A stretch of 64,000 bases of DNA from Candidatus Kerfeldbacteria bacterium CG15_BIG_FIL_POST_REV_8_21_14_020_45_12 (GCA_002781785.1 PFGC01000037.1:13589-77588), one strand, 5' to 3'; shown: positions 32,926-49,318, counted from the first letter of the stretch. Notes: a model not told the origin generated them from the letters alone. Translations and numbers: made by a program.

Positions 32926-32968
32926 AGTAAAAAAAAGAAGCCCGGTCGATCGCAGGTGATCGAACGGA

Positions 32969-33499
32969 CTAGTGGCTCGCGAAGCTCAGGCTGGGGCGAG
33001 TAGCGCCGCCAAAGTGCTCGGCGAGCCACGAGCGCATCTTGTCGGTCGGGAAGGGGGCGATGTTGCCAGTTCCCGGATCGCGGACGAGCTGCAGCCAGCC
33101 TTCGGTGTAGGCCCAGTCCCCGGGGAGGACGGGGAAGCTGGCGCGGAAGCGGTGTCCGACAGGGTCGGGAAGCCCGAAGCGAGCGTCTCCGAGGTCGTTC
33201 TGGATGACGGCCATTGCGGAGGTGTTGTCGCCGTACTGGCGCAGGACGGCCACGCAGAGCAGGCAGTCCCAGCAGCGGCCGGGGCCAAGCAGGTCGGGCA
33301 GTCGCCGCCATTCCAGCCGATCGGTGCTCAGGGGTACCGCTGTGTTGGGATGCTCCCATCGGACGATGCCCTGGTGGATGGCGACTGTAATCGGCCACAG
33401 GGTGCCGATGATCGAGTGCGCCCTGAGATCGCGGAGGGCATGGGGTGAGGAGGGGGGCCCTTCGGCGGTGGGCACCCAGGTTGCAGGACGATGCTTCAT
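32969..33499 (-). CDS. Hypothetical protein (177 aa) in a GC-rich island, with a CxxCxxC motif
   Basis: ATG at 33499 with a GGAG ribosome-binding site. The amino-acid composition is balanced (MKHRPATWVP...GRCWDCLLC...WLAEHFGG), whereas overlapping frames are Arg/Pro/Ala low-complexity. GC3-rich codons. Confidence 0.45.
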   Translation of the reverse strand: MKHRPATWVPTAEGPPSSPHALRDLRAHSIIGTLWPITVAIHQGIVRWEHPNTAVPLSTDRLEWRRLPDLLGPGRCWDCLLCVAVLRQYGDNTSAMAVIQNDLGDARFGLPDPVGHRFRASFPVLPGDWAYTEGWLQLVRDPGTGNIAPFPTDKMRSWLAEHFGGATRPSLSFASH

Positions 33500-33614
33500 C
33501 GAGACTCCACGGGTTTGTCGGCTTACTGTCTGCCGAGCTGAGGAAACGAACACCTCAATGGGTGTTGCCTGTATGTATCAAGAATACCCTGGCTCGTCAA
33601 TGATTCGGCCCCTC

Positions 33615-33642
33615 TTGACACTGCAAAATAGGTGAGTATACT
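33615..33642 (+). promoter_or_regulatory. hrcA promoter TTGACA-16-TATACT
   Basis: Consensus -35 box immediately upstream of the CIRCE element. Confidence 0.6.
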
Positions 33643-33646
33643 GCTA

Positions 33647-33673
33647 TTAGCACTCAGCCAATGAGAGTGCTAA
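33647..33673 (+). promoter_or_regulatory. CIRCE operator (HrcA binding site) TTAGCACTC-N9-GAGTGCTAA
   Basis: Perfect match to the canonical CIRCE inverted repeat, 25 nt upstream of hrcA. Confidence 0.9.
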
Positions 33674-37723: not shown

Positions 37724-38815
37724 ATGTCTAAAGACTATTACAACATACTCGGGGTGGAGAAGGGCGTTAGTGAAGATGAGCTAAAGAAGGCCTATCGGAA
37801 ACTAGCGCATAAGTATCACCCAGATAAAGAAGGTGGCGACGAAGCCAAATTTAAGGAGGTTAACGAGGCCTATCAGGTTTTGAGTAGCCCAGACAAGCGC
37901 AAAATGTACGACCAGTACGGCGAGGCCGGCGTCAACGGTGCCGCTGGTGGCGGACCAGGCGGAATGAATTGGGAAGACATCATGCGTCAAGGTGGTTTTG
38001 CCGGAGGTGGTCAGGGTGTTGAATTTGACCTAGGAGATATTTTTTCAGAGTTTTTTGGCGGCGGTGGACGCCGAGGTCAAAAACAGCAACAGCGCGGTAG
38101 TGATATTCAGATGGACTTGACCATGACCTTTAAAGAGGCTGCCTTTGGTCTTAAAAAAACCCTTAACGTGTTAAAGGGGTCTACTTGCAGTACTTGTTCT
38201 GGCAATGGTGCCAAGCCTGGTACTCCTATTAAAGAATGTACTACTTGCAAAGGGGCTGGTGTGGTTGAACAATTACAGCGCAGCGTGTTTGGAGCGGTTA
38301 GGTCGCACGTGGCCTGTGAGGCTTGTAAAGGTCGCGGTAAAACTGTCGAGACAGCTTGTGAGACCTGTCATGGAAAGGGCGTTGAACGCAAAGACACTGC
38401 CTTGGAAGTAGACATTCCAGCTGGCATTGATGATGGTCAAACAATTCGTATTACTGGCCAAGGAGAGGCCGGAGAATTTGGCGCACAGTCTGGTGATTTA
38501 TTTGTAACGGTTCATGTTAAATCCCACGATGGCTGGGAGCGCGATGGCGATAATATTTATTCAGAAACAGAAATTCCGTTTGCTACTTTAGTAATGGGTG
38601 GGACTATTATAGTGGATACCCTGGACGGTAAGATGGAAGTAAAAGTACCTAGTGGTACCGGCAGTGGTAAGCAGCTTAGGTTACGCGGAACCGGGGTAAC
38701 CCGTTTGCATGGTGGAGGCCGAGGCGATCACATTATTACCGTTCAAGTTGAGGTGCCTAAAAAAGTTTCGAGTAAGTATAAAAAGATTCTCAAGCAACTG
38801 TCTGAACTAGACTAA
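37724..38815 (+). CDS. dnaJ: Chaperone DnaJ
   Basis: J-domain HPD (KYHPDKE), G/F-rich region, and four CxxCxGxG zinc-finger repeats. Confidence 0.95.
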   Translation: MSKDYYNILGVEKGVSEDELKKAYRKLAHKYHPDKEGGDEAKFKEVNEAYQVLSSPDKRKMYDQYGEAGVNGAAGGGPGGMNWEDIMRQGGFAGGGQGVEFDLGDIFSEFFGGGGRRGQKQQQRGSDIQMDLTMTFKEAAFGLKKTLNVLKGSTCSTCSGNGAKPGTPIKECTTCKGAGVVEQLQRSVFGAVRSHVACEACKGRGKTVETACETCHGKGVERKDTALEVDIPAGIDDGQTIRITGQGEAGEFGAQSGDLFVTVHVKSHDGWERDGDNIYSETEIPFATLVMGGTIIVDTLDGKMEVKVPSGTGSGKQLRLRGTGVTRLHGGGRGDHIITVQVEVPKKVSSKYKKILKQLSELD

Positions 38816-38819
38816 GTAA

Positions 38820-38842
38820 CACCGCCAATCGGCGGTGTTTTT
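38820..38842 (+). terminator. Rho-independent terminator after dnaJ
   Basis: CACCGCC-aatc-GGCGGTG then TTTTT. A second bidirectional hairpin (ATCCC-ctcat-GGGAT flanked by A/T runs) lies at 38849-38878. Confidence 0.8.
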
Positions 38843-38889
38843 ACAAACAAAAAATCCCCTCATGGGATCAATTTTTTTATAGAAAAGAG

Positions 38890-39172
38890 AGGTGGAGCTG
38901 GGTGGGAGGTCGGCCGAAGCTTACCCCCACCCAGCTAGCACTGTTGGTATGATCACTGTGGACTCCCCAGTCCAACGCAGGGCTTCCGAGGCCCTACTCG
39001 CCGGTCCCGCAGGCGTTATCGTTCCTTGCGTGGGGTCTCCAGTCCCACCGATAAAGCCAAGCCAGCTCAGTAATCACGGCTCTGGCCGATGCCCATGCGG
39101 CTCATCGACCAAAGGTCCCTCGTCAACGAGTGACAGCCCTCCAGCTGGTTCGTTAACGTCACCTCTAGCGCC
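38890..39172 (-). ncRNA. Candidate novel structured RNA (~280 nt, GC-rich) with its own promoter; family unassigned
   Basis: On the minus strand, a TTGACT-17-TAGAGT promoter sits at 39179-39207 on plus-strand coordinates. Downstream is a GC-rich region packed with hairpins, ending in a perfect 11-bp stem (AGCTGGGTGGG...CCCACCCAGCT) followed by CAGCTCCACC and a U-rich tract. Every frame gives low-complexity Pro/Ser/Gly or Arg translation. Confidence 0.3.
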
Positions 39173-39213
39173 GTCGGCACTCTATCTGAAGGGCCTTATT
39201 TAGTCAAATATAA

Positions 39214-39270
39214 AAAAAGAGGCGGGTCGATCAGCAGCTCTCCGAAATATTCCAGAGACCGATCGATCCG
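39214..39270 (-). terminator. Terminator hairpin for paralog A (minus strand)
   Basis: Long imperfect hairpin CGGATCGATC...GATCGACCCG followed on the minus strand by CCTCTTTTTTT; it overlaps the stop codon. Confidence 0.5.
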
Positions 39271-40068
39271 CTATTTGTTGCCAGGCGCGGCTGGGCTAGT
39301 GACCAGCACCAGTAGGCCATCACGGTTGGCGCGACAGCCGCCACTGGCCATTGCCTCCCTGACGATGGCTTCCAGCTGATCCGCCACTTGAGGTGATGGA
39401 TCCTCATCCTCATCGTTGATGAAGTAGATTCCACAGATGTAGCTCTCCTGGTCGCCATCATCGACCCCGAGCATGACCCGAGTGCCGATGGGCAGATCCT
39501 CGATGCTGCTCAGACGATCCTGGATGGTTTCGAGCAGTTCAGCCACGGCAATGCCTAGCTCGGCGGTTTCGAGCAGGGGCATGTCCACCTTGCTGTCACC
39601 GGAGAGTTGGATCTTCATGCGGGAGCGTTCAGACCAGTCCTTGATCTGGGCATCGCAGACGATGGTTGCTGCGATCAGGTCGCTCAGGCTTGCGTTGCCG
39701 ATCGGTACAGTCCTAGCGAACGGAAGATCGAGGTACACGTGGAAGCTGTGCTGTCGCCGGTGCTTGAGCCCCAGGGCCTCTACCATCTCGGCGAGATTGA
39801 AGAGCATTTCGACGGCTCGGGGCAGGCAGGCAGGTCCCAGTTCGCCGACCGGCAGCAGGATCAGCATGGTGTCTTCACCATCGAGCGCCACCGGGTTGTT
39901 CGAGTCCATCAGGTCGATGCCTTCCTCGATGAGATCGGCACAGACCTCTTCCAGGGTGTTGGGGAAGGGTTGACCCAGAAGTGAGGTCAGGTGACCTGCC
40001 GAGTCAGTAGCTGTGAACAGGATCGTCACCGATCCGCTTGCTCCAGTGAAGATGTCAGTCGGTGTCAT
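39271..40068 (-). CDS. Unknown-function protein, paralog A of a tandem triad (GC-rich island)
   Basis: 265 aa from the ATG at 40068, which has a ctGGAGGacagATG ribosome-binding site. It shares blocks with B and C (VTILFTATDS.. / ..MLILLPVGELGPA). GC3-rich codons; promoter TTGACT-17-TAAGGT at 40105-40133 on the minus strand. Confidence 0.5.
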   Translation of the reverse strand: MTPTDIFTGASGSVTILFTATDSAGHLTSLLGQPFPNTLEEVCADLIEEGIDLMDSNNPVALDGEDTMLILLPVGELGPACLPRAVEMLFNLAEMVEALGLKHRRQHSFHVYLDLPFARTVPIGNASLSDLIAATIVCDAQIKDWSERSRMKIQLSGDSKVDMPLLETAELGIAVAELLETIQDRLSSIEDLPIGTRVMLGVDDGDQESYICGIYFINDEDEDPSPQVADQLEAIVREAMASGGCRANRDGLLVLVTSPAAPGNK

Positions 40069-40201
40069 CTGTCCTCCAGTAGCACTCACCTTGAGCGCGA
40101 TCTTACCTTAATAGCAAGGGTCGATCTAGTCAATAAAAAAAGAGACCCTACACGCACCTGGAGAGGTGGGTAGGGGTGAGAGAGACTTGCTGCGCCTCTG
40201 C

Positions 40202-40918
40202 TCAGGAGCTGGGGTTGTCCGTGCGGCGCCGGGAACCTCCCGCGCCGAAGCGGCGGAGGAGCTCCAGCAGCGACTCGCTGCCGTCGGTCTGGTCGCGGAA
40301 GATGTCTTCGACGTCGAAGCCGGGGCTGAAGCCGACGAACCGCACTCGGACCAGCGTCGGACCACGCGAGGTGGGATGGCCGCTGTTGAAGACGCCGTCG
40401 ATGGCATCTTTGGCTGCGGCGAGCTCCTTGAGCTCACGGCAGACCCAGGTGGGGTCCGTGAACACCCCGACGCTCGAGGAGACGCGACCGGTGGTGAGCA
40501 GATTGGTGATCCGTCCGAAGCTCAGCCCTCCGAGCAGGGCGAGGGCCCAGCTGACCTCGTCGTTGGAGACCTGCCAGAGATCGGACGGATCGATGGCGAT
40601 GGCCACGTCGGCGAGGTTCTGGTTGGTGACGTTGGCGACGATCTGTCGTCCCGCCATCGTCAGGCGGTTTGCCAGGCCTTCGTCGATCGCCCCCACCGGT
40701 ACGAACATGACCTTGCGGCCAGTCTGGGTGGTGTAGATCGTCGAGGCGGCCAGAGCATCACCGCGGATGCGGCGATGATCGGCGTTGAAGATGGCTTCAG
40801 CCTCGACGTCCTGGTGGAAGCCGAAGAGGGGGACGCGACCGAGGCCGCAGTAGCAGGTGCTGACCAGGATGACGGTCACGGCGGGGAGCTTTCCAGAGAA
40901 CAGGGGACGGGGCTGCAT
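40202..40918 (-). CDS. Unknown-function protein, paralog B of the tandem triad
   Basis: 238 aa; ATG with a GGAGG ribosome-binding site. Blocks AVTVILVSTCY and KVMFVPVGAIDEGLA align with A. Own promoter TTGACA-18-TATTGT (40999-41028, minus strand) and a downstream hairpin plus T-run. Confidence 0.5.
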   Translation of the reverse strand: MQPRPLFSGKLPAVTVILVSTCYCGLGRVPLFGFHQDVEAEAIFNADHRRIRGDALAASTIYTTQTGRKVMFVPVGAIDEGLANRLTMAGRQIVANVTNQNLADVAIAIDPSDLWQVSNDEVSWALALLGGLSFGRITNLLTTGRVSSSVGVFTDPTWVCRELKELAAAKDAIDGVFNSGHPTSRGPTLVRVRFVGFSPGFDVEDIFRDQTDGSESLLELLRRFGAGGSRRRTDNPSS

Positions 40919-41105
40919 GTTGCCTCCAGGCTACAGCTGTGATGTTTGCTCGAAACCGAAACTTTTGAATTTGGGGATTTTACCCCTCGAGCCGCCTGAC
41001 AATACCGGATTAATTTGGTCTTTGTCAAGGGTTTTTAAAAAAAGATCGCGCGGCAGACTCGGAGTCTAGCGCACGCGAAGGTGGCGGGTGTGACCTGATC
41101 CTTCT

Positions 41106-41789
41106 CTAATCGCGGTAGAAGGGGGCCACGTCGATGGCCCAGCCACTGTTCCGCTCGATGGCGGCAAGCAGACGGTCGCCGAGGCGGCCGGCAGCCTTGC
41201 GTGGGTGTCGGATCGTCTGGCTGGTCTTGCGCCAGGTCTCCGCCAGTCGCTCTGACCGCTGCGCCCATGTCAGCCAGCTGCTGTGGATCCAGGCCATATC
41301 CCTGGCCGTCTGGTCGTCCACGACCTCCGGGCAGGTCACGAGCACCTGCGGGGCGAAGGGGGTGTTGCGCCAGCGAGCCATGGTAGCGACGGTCTCCATG
41401 CAGCCCATGATCAGCTGCATCAGGCAGGTGCCTCGCAGCTGGCCGGGGTCGAGTACCAGGCAGGTATGCGTGACCGAGAGGTGCTTCTGAATCAGCAGAG
41501 CTCCCAGGTACTGGCCGATGTGGCGGTAGTACAGGCTGCTCAGGTCACGCCAGTCCTGTCCGAGCCCGACCATGATCAGGGTGGCCGTACCCGAGACGGT
41601 GATCAGGGACATCACGTTGAGCTGGCCGGTGATGTCTGGGAAGCGGACGGCCGCGTCCATGATCGAGTTGAAGTAGCCTTCCGGCAGCTTGTCCGGGCTC
41701 GAGATGAGCACGGGCTGGTTGTTGTCATCGCGGCCCGTGAAGACGACGACGAAGCGGGTTGGTGCCAGGGTGAAAGGAACGGGGAGCAT
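41106..41789 (-). CDS. Unknown-function protein, paralog C of the tandem triad
   Basis: 228 aa from the ATG at 41789 (GGAGGcagtacATG). Blocks TRFVVVFTGRDD and VMSLITVSGTA resemble A and B. Own promoter TTGACC-17-TACACT (41843-41871, minus strand), divergent from the 41939 gene. Confidence 0.5.
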   Translation of the reverse strand: MLPVPFTLAPTRFVVVFTGRDDNNQPVLISSPDKLPEGYFNSIMDAAVRFPDITGQLNVMSLITVSGTATLIMVGLGQDWRDLSSLYYRHIGQYLGALLIQKHLSVTHTCLVLDPGQLRGTCLMQLIMGCMETVATMARWRNTPFAPQVLVTCPEVVDDQTARDMAWIHSSWLTWAQRSERLAETWRKTSQTIRHPRKAAGRLGDRLLAAIERNSGWAIDVAPFYRD

Positions 41790-41887
41790 GTACTGCCTCC
41801 AGTACGTCAGGGTGGTGCCGGCAGAAACTACCAAGCCGCCGCAGTGTATCCAAATATTTATTATAGGTCAACGCTTATTGTTAAATA

Positions 41888-41916
41888 TCTAACTTTGTGG
41901 TATAATTATTTTAGAA
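41888..41916 (+). promoter_or_regulatory. Promoter TTGTTA-17-TATAAT for the membrane protein, divergent from the paralog C promoter
   Basis: Consensus -10 box and 17-nt spacer. Confidence 0.5.
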
Positions 41917-41938
41917 AAAAAATCATTCGCAACTAGCG

Positions 41939-42628
41939 ATGAATGTAGAGGAACAGCCGATTTCAATGCGGTTGGCACAAGCCACCACTGAACAGGCGTC
42001 AAAGAAAAAAAAGAAAACTACAGACAAACAGGCAGATCAACAGGTTGAATCAGTTGAGGAGGTCGTCGAGTCAGGTAATACGACGGAAGCTACCACAACT
42101 CAGCCACCGGTTGCTGACCAGCTTGCTGAGATGTTTAATTTGGCTAACCCCACTTGGGATCTTTTTATTATAGTATTTTTTGCTGTATCGGCTTTGTTGT
42201 ATGGAATGTCCCTAGGACGTGATCGAATTATAGTAATTCTTGTATCAATCTATATGTCCTTGGCGGTAGTACAGGCTGTGCCAGACTTTGTGCTTAACAT
42301 CACGGTTAATCAAAGCTTTGCCTTTCAGTTTACAACCTTTATATCGTTGTTTGTTGTCTTCTTTTTTATGATCTCGCGATCGGCCTTGCTGCGAACGATT
42401 GGTTCAGGTGGGCAGCGCGGTGGATTTATAGCCACAATTATCTTTTCAATTTTGCACGTTGGTTTGTTGTTGTCGATTGCCATGTCATTCATGCCGCCAG
42501 AATTTTTACAACGCTTTGCGCCACTAACTCAAACTGTTTTTACAAACGAGTGGGCGGTGTTTGGTTGGATTTTGGCACCGATTGCCGCCATGATTGTATT
42601 TGGTCGGAGAGAGATTGAGGAAAAATAA
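41939..42628 (+). CDS. Hypothetical integral membrane protein (4 TM; CvpA-like topology)
   Basis: Acidic, T-rich N-terminus followed by four hydrophobic helices. Confidence 0.4.
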   Translation: MNVEEQPISMRLAQATTEQASKKKKKTTDKQADQQVESVEEVVESGNTTEATTTQPPVADQLAEMFNLANPTWDLFIIVFFAVSALLYGMSLGRDRIIVILVSIYMSLAVVQAVPDFVLNITVNQSFAFQFTTFISLFVVFFFMISRSALLRTIGSGGQRGGFIATIIFSILHVGLLLSIAMSFMPPEFLQRFAPLTQTVFTNEWAVFGWILAPIAAMIVFGRREIEEK

Positions 42629-42670
42629 AAGAACCAAACAGTAGACTACTGTTCGCTTAAATTTTTTTAT

Positions 42671-46777: not shown

Positions 46778-49318
46778 ATGGAGGCATTTTTAGCTGGAAT
46801 AGACACATCAATGCTGATAGCGATATACGTTATAGGATCTTTGGCATTTTTGTTTTTTGTTGTTATGACGGTACGTTGGTTTGTTAGGCGTAGTTTGGAG
46901 AAGCCAAACGCCTTTCAAATGTCAGTGATGATGATTACCGTCCCGAAAGAAGGTCAAGCGGAAGATCAGCAAATGGGATTGTCATCTGATCAGGCTAAAG
47001 AGCGTATTTCAGTGGCTGAGGTTTTCTTTTCAACTTTAGGTGGAGTTAAAGCACAGCGCGGGTTAGCAGCTTGGTGGTACGGACGCAACGATCATTTTGC
47101 TTTGGAGATTGTAGCTGATCGTGAAGGTTTAGTGACTTTTTACGCAGCTGTACCAAGGTATATGCAACAGTACTTTGAGCAACAAATTCACGCGCAGTGG
47201 GAAGATGCCAAGATAGATGAAGTGGAAGATTATAATATTTTTGAACCACAAGGCGTAGTCGTTGGCTCAACCTTAAAGCTCACTAGGAGCCAGATTTTTC
47301 CGATTACGACTTACGATAAAATGGAGTCAGATCCACTTAATTCTCTGACCAACATTTTATCTCGATTTGAAAAGGAAGAGGGAGCGGCTGTGCAGATTGT
47401 TATTCGATCAGCTCGACCTGAGTGGCATAGGTTGCCCACCCAAGTCGCTAGAACCATGCAGCAAGGTAAAAGTGTGGACAGGGCTTACAGTGAAGTAACG
47501 GCAAATCTTTTTTCTAAGGTTTGGCGAGAGTTTGCCAGAGTGATCTCGCAAAAGCAAAATAAAACAGAAGCTGGAATTGATCCCCGGACAGACCGAGAGT
47601 ACCGAATCTCTCCAATGGAAGAGGAGGTAGTTAAGGCCCTAGAGGAAAAAACCAGCAAGGCCGGATTTGATGTAAATATTAGAGTGGTGGTGTCGGCGGC
47701 TAGGCAAGACGTGGCTACCTATAAACTGAATAATGTATTAAACGCTTTTACTCAGTATGCCGGCTATCAGTATGGAAATAAGTTTGTAGCTAGTAAACCG
47801 AGCACTAGTCCTGATTTGGTGAAAGATTTTATTTATCGTAATTTTGATGATAGGAAAAGTTACGTTTTGAATACAAAAGAAATGGCCTCGCTATGGCACT
47901 TGCCGTTACAGAACACCGAGACCCCTAATATTCGTTGGTTGATGTCCAAAAAATCACCACCTCCTTCAAACCTTCCAAAAGAGGGCGTTATTATTGGCGT
48001 GGTTGAATATCGCGGCAAGGAGCAGATGGTTAGAATCCAGCGAGCAGATAGAACCAGGCACATGTATATTATTGGTAAGTCTGGTTCTGGTAAGTCTGTT
48101 TTACTTACTTCAATGGTTATCCAGGATATCCAAAATGGTGAAGGCGTTGGCGTTATCGATCCGCACGGAGAATTGATTGAAGACATTTTGCCGCACATTC
48201 CAAAAGATCGCGCCGATGATGTGATTATTTTTGACCCGTCATATACTGATTATCCGATGGGTTTGAATATGCTCGAATATGAAAATGATGACCAGCGTGA
48301 TTTTGCAGTTCAAGAGATGGTCGCTATTTTCTATAAATTATTTGGAGAAGAGATGATTGGTCCGATGTTTGAGCATTACATGCGTAATGCGATGTTGGCG
48401 TTAATGGAAGATAAAGAGGCTGGCGCGACCTTGATTGAAGTCCCGCGCATGTTTACGGATGACAAGTTCCGCAAGGATAAAGTTAGCAAGGTAAAGAATT
48501 TAATCGTGAAGAATTTCTGGGAACAGGAATACGAACAGTCACAACAAGGTCAACAGGCAGCAGACATGTTGTCGTATGTTATCTCCAAGATTGGTAGGTT
48601 TTTGACTAATGACACGATGCGAAACATTATTGGTCAAAAAAAATCGGCCTTTAATTTTAAGGAGGTCATGGACAAGCAGAGTATTTTGTTAGTTAACCTG
48701 TCTAAGGGAAAAATTGGAGAAGTTAACTCATCATTGCTCGGATTAATTTGTGTCACAAAGCTGCAAATGGCAGCTATGGCCAGAGCTAGTCAGGCCAAGG
48801 CTGACCGCAAAGATTTTTATCTATACATGGATGAGTTTCAAAATTTTACTACAGATTCGATTGCAACTATTTTGTCTGAGGCACGTAAATATCGTTTGAA
48901 CTTAATCATGGCCCATCAGTATATTGGACAGCTGTCTGAAAATAACGACACTTCAATTCGAGATGCTGTTTTTGGTAATGCGGGCACGATGTTGTCTTTT
49001 AGAGTTGGTGCAGAAGATGCTGATTTCTTGGTAAAAGAGTACGCTCCAGTTTTTGATGAAAATGACATTATTAATGTTGATCAGTACACAGCTAATACGA
49101 AGCTATTGATAGATAATACAGCTTCTCGTCCATTTAATATGAAAACCATCATGCCGCCGGAGGGGGATCCTCATATGAGTGATGTGCTCAAAGAGATGGC
49201 TAAGTTAAAATATGGCAGTCCGCGGCAGGCCGTTGAAGACGATATTCGAGAGCGAGGAGCCTTAGATCGCCTTGGAAAACAAGGCCCATCGCCACTTGGG
49301 CCAGATTCGTTTATCTAG
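46778..49318 (+). CDS. Membrane-anchored FtsK/HerA-superfamily ATPase (VirB4/TraC-like, AAA_10/DUF87)
   Basis: 846 aa; N-terminal TM; Walker A YIIGKSGSGKS followed by GVIDPHGEL (HerA/VirB4 hallmark); Walker B LYMDEFQNF; HQYIGQL. Confidence 0.65.
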   Translation: MEAFLAGIDTSMLIAIYVIGSLAFLFFVVMTVRWFVRRSLEKPNAFQMSVMMITVPKEGQAEDQQMGLSSDQAKERISVAEVFFSTLGGVKAQRGLAAWWYGRNDHFALEIVADREGLVTFYAAVPRYMQQYFEQQIHAQWEDAKIDEVEDYNIFEPQGVVVGSTLKLTRSQIFPITTYDKMESDPLNSLTNILSRFEKEEGAAVQIVIRSARPEWHRLPTQVARTMQQGKSVDRAYSEVTANLFSKVWREFARVISQKQNKTEAGIDPRTDREYRISPMEEEVVKALEEKTSKAGFDVNIRVVVSAARQDVATYKLNNVLNAFTQYAGYQYGNKFVASKPSTSPDLVKDFIYRNFDDRKSYVLNTKEMASLWHLPLQNTETPNIRWLMSKKSPPPSNLPKEGVIIGVVEYRGKEQMVRIQRADRTRHMYIIGKSGSGKSVLLTSMVIQDIQNGEGVGVIDPHGELIEDILPHIPKDRADDVIIFDPSYTDYPMGLNMLEYENDDQRDFAVQEMVAIFYKLFGEEMIGPMFEHYMRNAMLALMEDKEAGATLIEVPRMFTDDKFRKDKVSKVKNLIVKNFWEQEYEQSQQGQQAADMLSYVISKIGRFLTNDTMRNIIGQKKSAFNFKEVMDKQSILLVNLSKGKIGEVNSSLLGLICVTKLQMAAMARASQAKADRKDFYLYMDEFQNFTTDSIATILSEARKYRLNLIMAHQYIGQLSENNDTSIRDAVFGNAGTMLSFRVGAEDADFLVKEYAPVFDENDIINVDQYTANTKLLIDNTASRPFNMKTIMPPEGDPHMSDVLKEMAKLKYGSPRQAVEDDIRERGALDRLGKQGPSPLGPDSFI

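Follow-up and report, generated by a model that had tools for sequence, protein, structure and literature searches.

A candidate gene for a structured RNA at the margin of a GC-rich genomic island of Candidatus Kerfeldbacteria

On the minus strand of a 64,000-nt stretch of DNA (hereafter the window) from a groundwater population of Candidatus Kerfeldbacteria (CPR/Patescibacteria), positions 38890-39207 hold a GC-rich region that an earlier note had proposed to be a novel non-coding RNA with a promoter of its own and a tmRNA-like 3' terminus. Every sequence feature described in that note is present where it had been placed. The question raised by this locus is whether the region is a gene for an RNA, and of what kind, or whether it is better explained as the tail of a neighbouring transcript, as a protein gene or as the remains of one. 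I consider it probable, at roughly 0.6, that a real gene with a transcript of its own lies here and that its product is a structured non-coding RNA outside the families described so far, a reading that draws on sequence and predicted structure.

The region lies at the edge of an island of about 3 kb (38890-41900) with a GC content of approximately 60-70%, against approximately 44% in the host DNA, and it is the fourth and last unit of this island, the other three being open reading frames for proteins. Contigs from NCBI (GCA_002790455.1), JGI, ENA and Logan contain these 3.2 kb (38800-42000), and likewise the DnaJ protein, with 100% identity, and all 10 of the 10 public contigs, which stem from independent environmental assemblies, are 100% identical here; a chimera or a cloning scar can therefore be dismissed. 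The recognition sites for EagI, HindIII and NheI that had been noticed in the region do exist, within the hairpin called P8 below, and had been thought odd and possibly indicative of a cloning linker. However, about five palindromes of six base pairs are expected in 300 nt, so these sites are unremarkable, and the agreement of independent environmental assemblies over the region rules out a cloning artefact. The best explanation of the foreign-looking island is that it was horizontally acquired, and that the RNA gene was acquired with it. Between the units of the island the signals are AT-rich and look like those of the host, in contrast to the foreign appearance of the coding bodies, and the two together are odd for simple horizontal transfer.

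The three protein-coding units of the island are the following.

41106-41834, minus strand: 242-aa ORF (227 aa in one public gene call), GC3 0.87, with a promoter at 41871-41843 and a terminator.
40202-40918, minus strand: 238-aa ORF, GC3 0.85, with its own promoter at 41028-40999, a GGAGG-5 nt-ATG start and a terminator.
39271-40089, minus strand: 272-aa ORF, the direct neighbour of the candidate RNA; 265 aa when read from the ATG at 40068, which has a GGAGG 5 nt upstream.

The period-3 pattern of GC content identifies the frames at 41834-41106, 40918-40202 and 40089-39271 as the genuine minus-strand genes, with values of 0.66/0.42/0.70 for the three codon positions of the 272-aa ORF. In most public assemblies, plus-strand ORFs of 258 aa (40166-40942) and 217 aa (41283-41936) are called across the island instead, over two of these genes; because codon-position GC shows the minus-strand frames to be coding, I doubt these calls, and the two database proteins are probably wrong-strand calls. 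None of the three minus-strand ORFs matches a family in Pfam, NCBIfam, PADLOC or PHROG. Searches for homologues returned only the query itself for the 272-aa ORF among 5.8 billion protein clusters, the query and one spurious repeat protein for the 238-aa ORF (exhaustive HMMER over 1.84 billion representatives), and nothing in the protein homologue search for the 242-aa ORF. A single-sequence AF2 model of the 265-aa protein had a pLDDT of 40 and was unusable. The membrane protein on the right flank has its only relative in Kerfeldbacteria RIFCSPHIGHO2_12_FULL_48_17, where the upstream gene is a different one and the island is absent.

An exact direct repeat of 11 nt, AATTTTTTTAT (38870-38880 and 42660-42670), brackets the island together with the adjacent gene for a 229-aa membrane protein; it is AT-rich and probably due to chance rather than an evident target-site duplication. 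A few kb from the island, at 46778-49318, an 846-aa ORF carries the domains DUF8128 and T4SS-DNA_transf (a VirD4/TraG-like coupling protein), which could have to do with the uptake or transfer of DNA in this CPR bacterium.

The cassettes of the island share a common layout, in which the terminator of the preceding unit, a hairpin with its T-run (U7 in the RNA), is directly followed by a promoter of the form TTGAC(T/A)-17/18-TAnnnT. A consensus scan found 8 promoter-like sites in 38000-42500, compared to 1.8±1.2 in shuffled sequences. The signals that surround the candidate RNA are these.

39212-39271, minus strand: intrinsic terminator of the upstream 272-aa ORF, with a hairpin at 39271-39222 followed by CUCUUUUUUU; -27.2 kcal/mol, z -4.2.
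39179-39207, minus strand: sigma-70-like promoter, TTGACT (39207-39202), 17 nt, TAGAGT (39184-39179), preceded by a T-run.
38843-38869, minus strand: putative intrinsic terminator of the RNA unit, GAUCCC-AUGAG-GGGAUU (hairpin at 38869-38853), followed by UUUUGUUUGU.

The promoter proposed in the earlier note is among the sites listed by the scan. Transcription from it would start at about 39174-39171 (near 39172), directly after the terminator of the neighbouring ORF, and would end at the hairpin and U-run at 38869-38843, giving an RNA of approximately 290-325 nt. This last hairpin forms in either reading direction and adjoins the terminator of dnaJ on the plus strand (38821-38843). A U-rich tract had also been described behind the terminal stem of the region: the tract, CCACCUCUCUUUUCU, is there, but it is short and interrupted, and the canonical terminator with its hairpin (38869-38853) and U-run is situated 20 nt beyond it.

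Because the U-tract behind P8 is interrupted, the region could be read as an elaborate 3' end and not as a gene. It would then be a structured extension of the mRNA of the 272-aa ORF, reached by read-through of the terminator, and could serve as a stabiliser, as a processed 3'-UTR sRNA or as a compound terminator. The region indeed lies directly downstream of this ORF and in the same orientation, and P8 with CCACCUCUCUUUUCU resembles the hairpins with CUCUUUUUUU that terminate the other units. However, a strong terminator (the hairpin with U7, z -4.2) divides the ORF from the RNA unit, and the -35 box of a good -35/-10 pair, with the geometry of the other cassette promoters, follows it directly; moreover, the U-tract begins 4-8 nt away from the stem of P8, and the canonical terminator lies further downstream. 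I therefore regard such an extension as rather improbable.

The coding capacity of the region speaks in the same direction as its boundaries. On the minus strand the open reading frames measure 37, 27 and 32 aa, and the longest of them takes its GTG start from inside the -10 box. A ribosome site of the form GGAGG-5 nt-ATG was not found in the RNA unit, unlike at the starts of the 265-aa and 238-aa ORFs and of a 176-aa ORF in a second island (see below), and the only minus-strand mini-ORF with a Shine-Dalgarno-like lead encodes VIIPTVLAGWG*. The plus strand holds a 103-aa ORF (38892-39203) that spans the whole region and is annotated as a gene in one of the public contigs, which raises the alternative of a plus-strand protein gene. 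Its frame is open across the entire region, and the in-frame GTG at 38901 is preceded by a GAGGTG at a distance of 7 nt. However, its third codon position has the lowest GC content of the three (GC3 0.57, compared to 0.63 for GC2), the reverse of the real island genes, in which GC3 is 0.70-0.87; its product is rich in Pro, Ser and Gly and has no Pfam match, no PHROG match and no protein homologue; and it lies behind two plus-strand terminators, has no promoter and would have its start codon within an 11-bp GC stem. A protein gene on this strand is very improbable. Of the outcomes that the earlier note gave as refuting an RNA, neither poor folding nor a conserved ORF was observed. Judged by its sequence, then, the region has what is generally asked of an sRNA gene, namely a promoter and a terminator of its own and no coding capacity.

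The predicted fold of the minus-strand transcript can be described as follows, all features being on the minus strand.

38885-39174: body of the candidate RNA, approximately 290 nt, approximately 61% GC, a predicted five-way junction closed by P1.
39166-39160 (AGAGGUG) with 38894-38888 (CACCUCU): P1, closing helix of 7 bp, mean pair probability 0.91.
39121-39158: P2, 9 bp (39158-39150 with 39129-39121).
39147-39143 with 39138-39134: tip of P2, 5 bp, capped by a GGAG tetraloop.
39080-39114: P3, 12 bp, CUUUGGUCGAUG with CAUCGGCCAGAG, two G·U pairs, pair probability 0.94.
38949-39077: P4, 10 bp (39077-39068 with 38958-38949), enclosing the arms P5, P6 and P7.
39066-39000: P5, long irregular arm with the loop ACUGGAGAC and the internal loop GCAAGGAA.
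38997-38977: P6, loop CUCGGAA.
38974-38959: P7, loop GGGG.
38937-38948: J4/8, ACCAACAGUGCU, 12 nt, the sole long single-stranded segment.
38896-38936: P8, terminal hairpin of 11+3+2 bp with a cUUCGg tetraloop; -30.4 kcal/mol, z -5.4.

In this predicted structure P1 would join the two ends of the RNA and lead into a five-way junction of the long and nearly perfect helices P2, P3, P4 and P8, with P4 carrying three more arms and the 12-nt linker staying single-stranded. The local hairpins GGGCttccgagGCCC (38981-38995) and GTGGGgtctccagtCCCAC (39031-39049), pointed out earlier, are both present, and so is the perfect 11-bp terminal stem, AGCTGGGTGGG with CCCACCCAGCT (38896-38906 / 38926-38936), which forms the base of P8 and encloses 19 nt.

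The fold is considerably stronger than expected by chance. For the 301-nt minus strand, the minimum free energy is -143.6 kcal/mol, compared to -118.1±5.2 in 100 dinucleotide shuffles, none of which folds as well (0/100, z -4.87). In 300 shuffles the ensemble diversity was 66.9±23.8 and the number of perfect helices of at least 9 bp was 0.69±0.70, against 13.7 and 4, respectively, in the region, and neither value was reached by any of the shuffles (0/300 for both); the pair probabilities of the predicted helices are 0.90-0.99. The coding DNA of the islands, however, also has a modest folding advantage over its shuffled versions (z down to -3.3), so that the z-score alone overstates the signal, and for this reason the region was also compared with 31 windows of the same length from the GC-rich coding DNA of two islands. 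These have ensemble diversities of 29-108 and at most two long helices. In both measures the region is an outlier with respect to its own compositional background.

The structure is also specific to the minus strand. Its minimum free energy is about -139 on the minus strand compared to -120 on the plus strand, where the diversity rises to 64 and one long helix is left. The minus-strand fold is free of A·C mismatches and contains 10 G·U pairs, of which a reading of the helix sequences places seven inside helices. Such an asymmetry is not expected of a palindrome at the level of DNA. Promoter, terminator, strand-specific fold and the lack of a credible ORF or ribosome site all support the earlier proposal of a non-coding RNA on this strand.

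Alternatively, the region may be a relic without function: a fourth cassette that has decayed, or what is left of the 3' part of a foreign, GC-rich gene. The fold would then simply follow from base composition and local inverted repeats. The units next to it, built alike, are protein cassettes, and two small minus-strand ORFs retain a weak, frame-tracking GC3 (0.82 at 39180-39067, a span of 38 codons, and 0.71 at 39077-38994). The negative z-scores of the island coding DNA point the same way, and no relatives that could show conservation were found. However, the fold measures outlie both the shuffles and the island coding DNA, and the asymmetry between G·U and A·C pairs points to selection on a minus-strand RNA. 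Furthermore, a conceptual translation of the supposed remnant requires a frameshift and a stop and yields Trp-rich nonsense, and promoter and terminator are still in place. Decay of a former gene is therefore an unlikely explanation, though one of some weight, and an RNA gene is the reading that I retain.

If the region encodes an RNA, its proposed kinship with tmRNA has to be considered. The resemblance consists of a single 10-mer, CAGCUCCACC, which matches the usual 3' end of tmRNA, and of a hairpin (P8, the stem that had been likened to a T-arm) that abuts the 3' strand of the end-joining helix in the manner of a T-arm next to an acceptor stem; the window contains a single copy of the 3' motif CAGCTCCACC. 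However, ARAGORN found three tRNAs and no tmRNA in the window, and Rfam at the gathering threshold likewise returned three tRNAs only. At E<=10, scans of the sub-windows 38600-39500 and 38840-39215 produced only noise from miRNA, snoRNA and unrelated sRNA models and no tRNA or tmRNA hit, the latter comprising the tmRNA, the alpha, beta and cyano two-piece tmRNA and the mt-tmRNA models. With respect to Rfam, the statement that the RNA belongs to no known family thus holds at either threshold.

The details of the fold do not favour a tRNA-like domain either. The loop had been noted to be 19 nt and not the 7 nt of a T-loop; these 19 nt are present but fold on themselves into an extension of 3+2 bp under the cUUCGg tetraloop, and the sequence GUUCRANYC of a T-loop is missing. 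The CACC of the 10-mer is predicted to be paired in P1, all of whose pairs (AGAGGUG/CACCUCU) are Watson-Crick, leaving no G·U at position 3 (G3·U70); it is followed by UCUCUUUUCU, and the 3' end as encoded reads CCU instead of CCA. Pseudoknots were not evident on inspection of the predicted fold. The earlier observation that there is no frame for a tag peptide is correct, as none of the three minus-strand ORFs has a tag-like C-terminus and no frame has a hydrophobic, Ala-rich tail, the only mini-ORF with a ribosome-site lead being the one given above. SmpB was not found by tblastn with an E. coli query in the window and approximately 18 kb of its flanks. A divergent tmRNA, or another tRNA-like RNA with a 3' end that could be aminoacylated, is accordingly the least probable of all the explanations considered here.

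Searches for relatives of the RNA gave no result. A 'distant' blastn search of the whole island against plasmids and phages found no match. Patterns taken from the surroundings of the J4/8 linker and from the tip of P8, exact or R/Y-degenerate, were absent both from viral contigs and from metagenome contigs, the latter a collection that evidently does not contain the source sample. The 103-aa plus-strand ORF, which stood in for the RNA in protein searches, had no homologue, and scans of viral loci were also empty. Within the window and approximately 18 kb of flanking sequence, blastn and nhmmer detected no paralogue. It is plausible that the region encodes a single-copy sRNA.

As to what such an RNA might do, nearly all of its nucleotides are predicted to be in helices, and the exposed ones are those of the GGA- or GGAG-containing loops and of the 12-nt linker; for this reason, and because no antisense target stands out, I favour protein binding over base-pairing. 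The complement of J4/8 is no more frequent elsewhere in the window than expected by chance, and RNAduplex against nine 5' regions gave no z-score below -1.4, a method that is crude for long sequences. A GGA is present in four of the six hairpin loops, compared to 1.0±0.97 in shuffles (P ~0.0125, post hoc), whereas the total count of 9 equals the shuffle mean of 9.0 and shows no enrichment. The RNA could thus act in trans as a scaffold or decoy for proteins, rather than as an antisense regulator or a translation-rescue RNA, and could display GGA/GGAG in four of six hairpin loops and one internal loop in the manner of the CsrB/RsmZ decoys, or in a way that mimics a Shine-Dalgarno sequence. This specific mode of binding is a tentative suggestion of low confidence. 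The three co-inherited proteins without detectable relatives are possible partners of the RNA. That they form with it an undescribed ribonucleoprotein or host-interaction module, of which the RNA would be the nucleic-acid subunit, is more speculative still; were it so, the RNA would be the first of a new class of large structured bacterial RNAs, characterised by a five-way junction with GGAG loops.

The 3' tail of the candidate RNA, CACCUCUCUUUUCUA (38888-38895), resembles the anti-Shine-Dalgarno sequence CACCUCCUUUCUA at the 3' end of 16S rRNA. This is possibly a coincidence. The tail is predicted to pair with the Shine-Dalgarno-like AGAGGUG at the 5' end of the RNA, and GGAG motifs are found in the loops.

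GC-rich cassettes are not restricted to this island. A second island at 32940-33600, with up to 70% GC, is located just upstream of hrcA, and a third cassette (62-65% GC; L014 18290-18745) lies outside the window, approximately 9 kb past its right end.

32969-33499, minus strand: 176-aa ORF (GC3 0.82); promoter TTGACG-17-TACATA, ribosome site GGAG, terminator 32970-32932.
L014 18346-18681, minus strand: 111-aa hydrophobic ORF, probably for a membrane protein, with a TTGACA-N16/17-TAAAGT promoter, a GGAGG-5 nt-ATG start and a hairpin with a T-run as terminator.

Both of these cassettes are on the strand opposite to most host genes and have TTGAC-type promoters, GGAG(G)-type sites and terminators made of a hairpin and a T-run. 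The 176-aa ORF has no match in Pfam, NCBIfam, PADLOC or PHROG, and the third cassette has no match to a Pfam family. At 32940-33600 the public gene calls give a plus-strand ORF of 158 aa instead of the 176-aa ORF on the minus strand. The operon hrcA-grpE-dnaK-(218 aa, no Pfam match)-dnaJ has GC-rich cassettes on both flanks; behind the promoter of hrcA, TTGACA-16-TATACT, comes a CIRCE operator without mismatches, TTAGCACTC-N9-GAGTGCTAA (33647-33673; the whole site spans 33615-33673). One may well find the recurring GC-rich cassettes no less curious than the RNA.

Should the RNA prove real, the very sparse list of non-housekeeping RNAs in the Patescibacteria/CPR would gain a large and highly structured member, and one that is tied to GC-rich cassettes in which promoters, ribosome sites and terminators of the host type accompany proteins without detectable relatives. 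These cassettes may bear on how reduced symbionts acquire and domesticate foreign genes. As the candidate is known from a single sequence, its value depends on relatives or transcripts.

Among known systems, tmRNA (SsrA, RF00023 and its permuted variants) is similar in size, in its paired 5' and 3' ends, in the 10-nt CAGCUCCACC and in a GC-rich hairpin that immediately precedes the 3' half of the closing helix. The candidate RNA differs in that it has no tRNA-like domain (T-loop, G3·U70, free ACCA), no tag ORF and no pseudoknots, and it is located in a foreign island and not at a conserved ssrA locus. With CsrB, RsmY and RsmZ it shares the organisation as an independent gene, framed by a promoter of its own and a rho-independent terminator, and several hairpins with GGA in their loops. 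However, it displays only four to five GGA motifs in all, the total GGA count not being enriched, and it consists of long, perfect, GC-rich helices in a multi-way junction instead of a string of short hairpins. The Rfam models for CsrB, CsrC and RsmX/Y/Z did not match at E<=10, and tblastn found neither CsrA nor Hfq in the 64-kb window. The ωRNA or HEARO of IS200/605-TnpB/IscB elements and the bridge RNA of IS110 are also structured RNAs of approximately 300 nt at the end of a foreign segment, and the candidate RNA is, like them, co-oriented with the ORFs of its element. No match to TnpB, IscB or a DEDD recombinase was obtained for the three island ORFs in Pfam, NCBIfam, PADLOC and PHROG, and neither an Rfam HEARO match nor terminal repeats or extra copies were found for the region. 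The orphan candidates of the GC-IGR and DIMPL studies (PMC6429828, PMC8632094, PMC11109978) are, like the present region, long, GC-rich and structured intergenic stretches in a genome of lower GC content. Here, however, the neighbouring genes are GC-rich too, so that the GC content marks the island and not the RNA alone. In the GC-IGR pipeline, candidates with fewer than five unique representatives are termed 'low-ranking' or 'unnamed', of which there were 607 and 427 cases (PMC11109978), and with its single representative the candidate RNA would be 'unnamed' or 'low-ranking' under these rules. It is best filed as a generic, stand-alone candidate for a structured bacterial sRNA.
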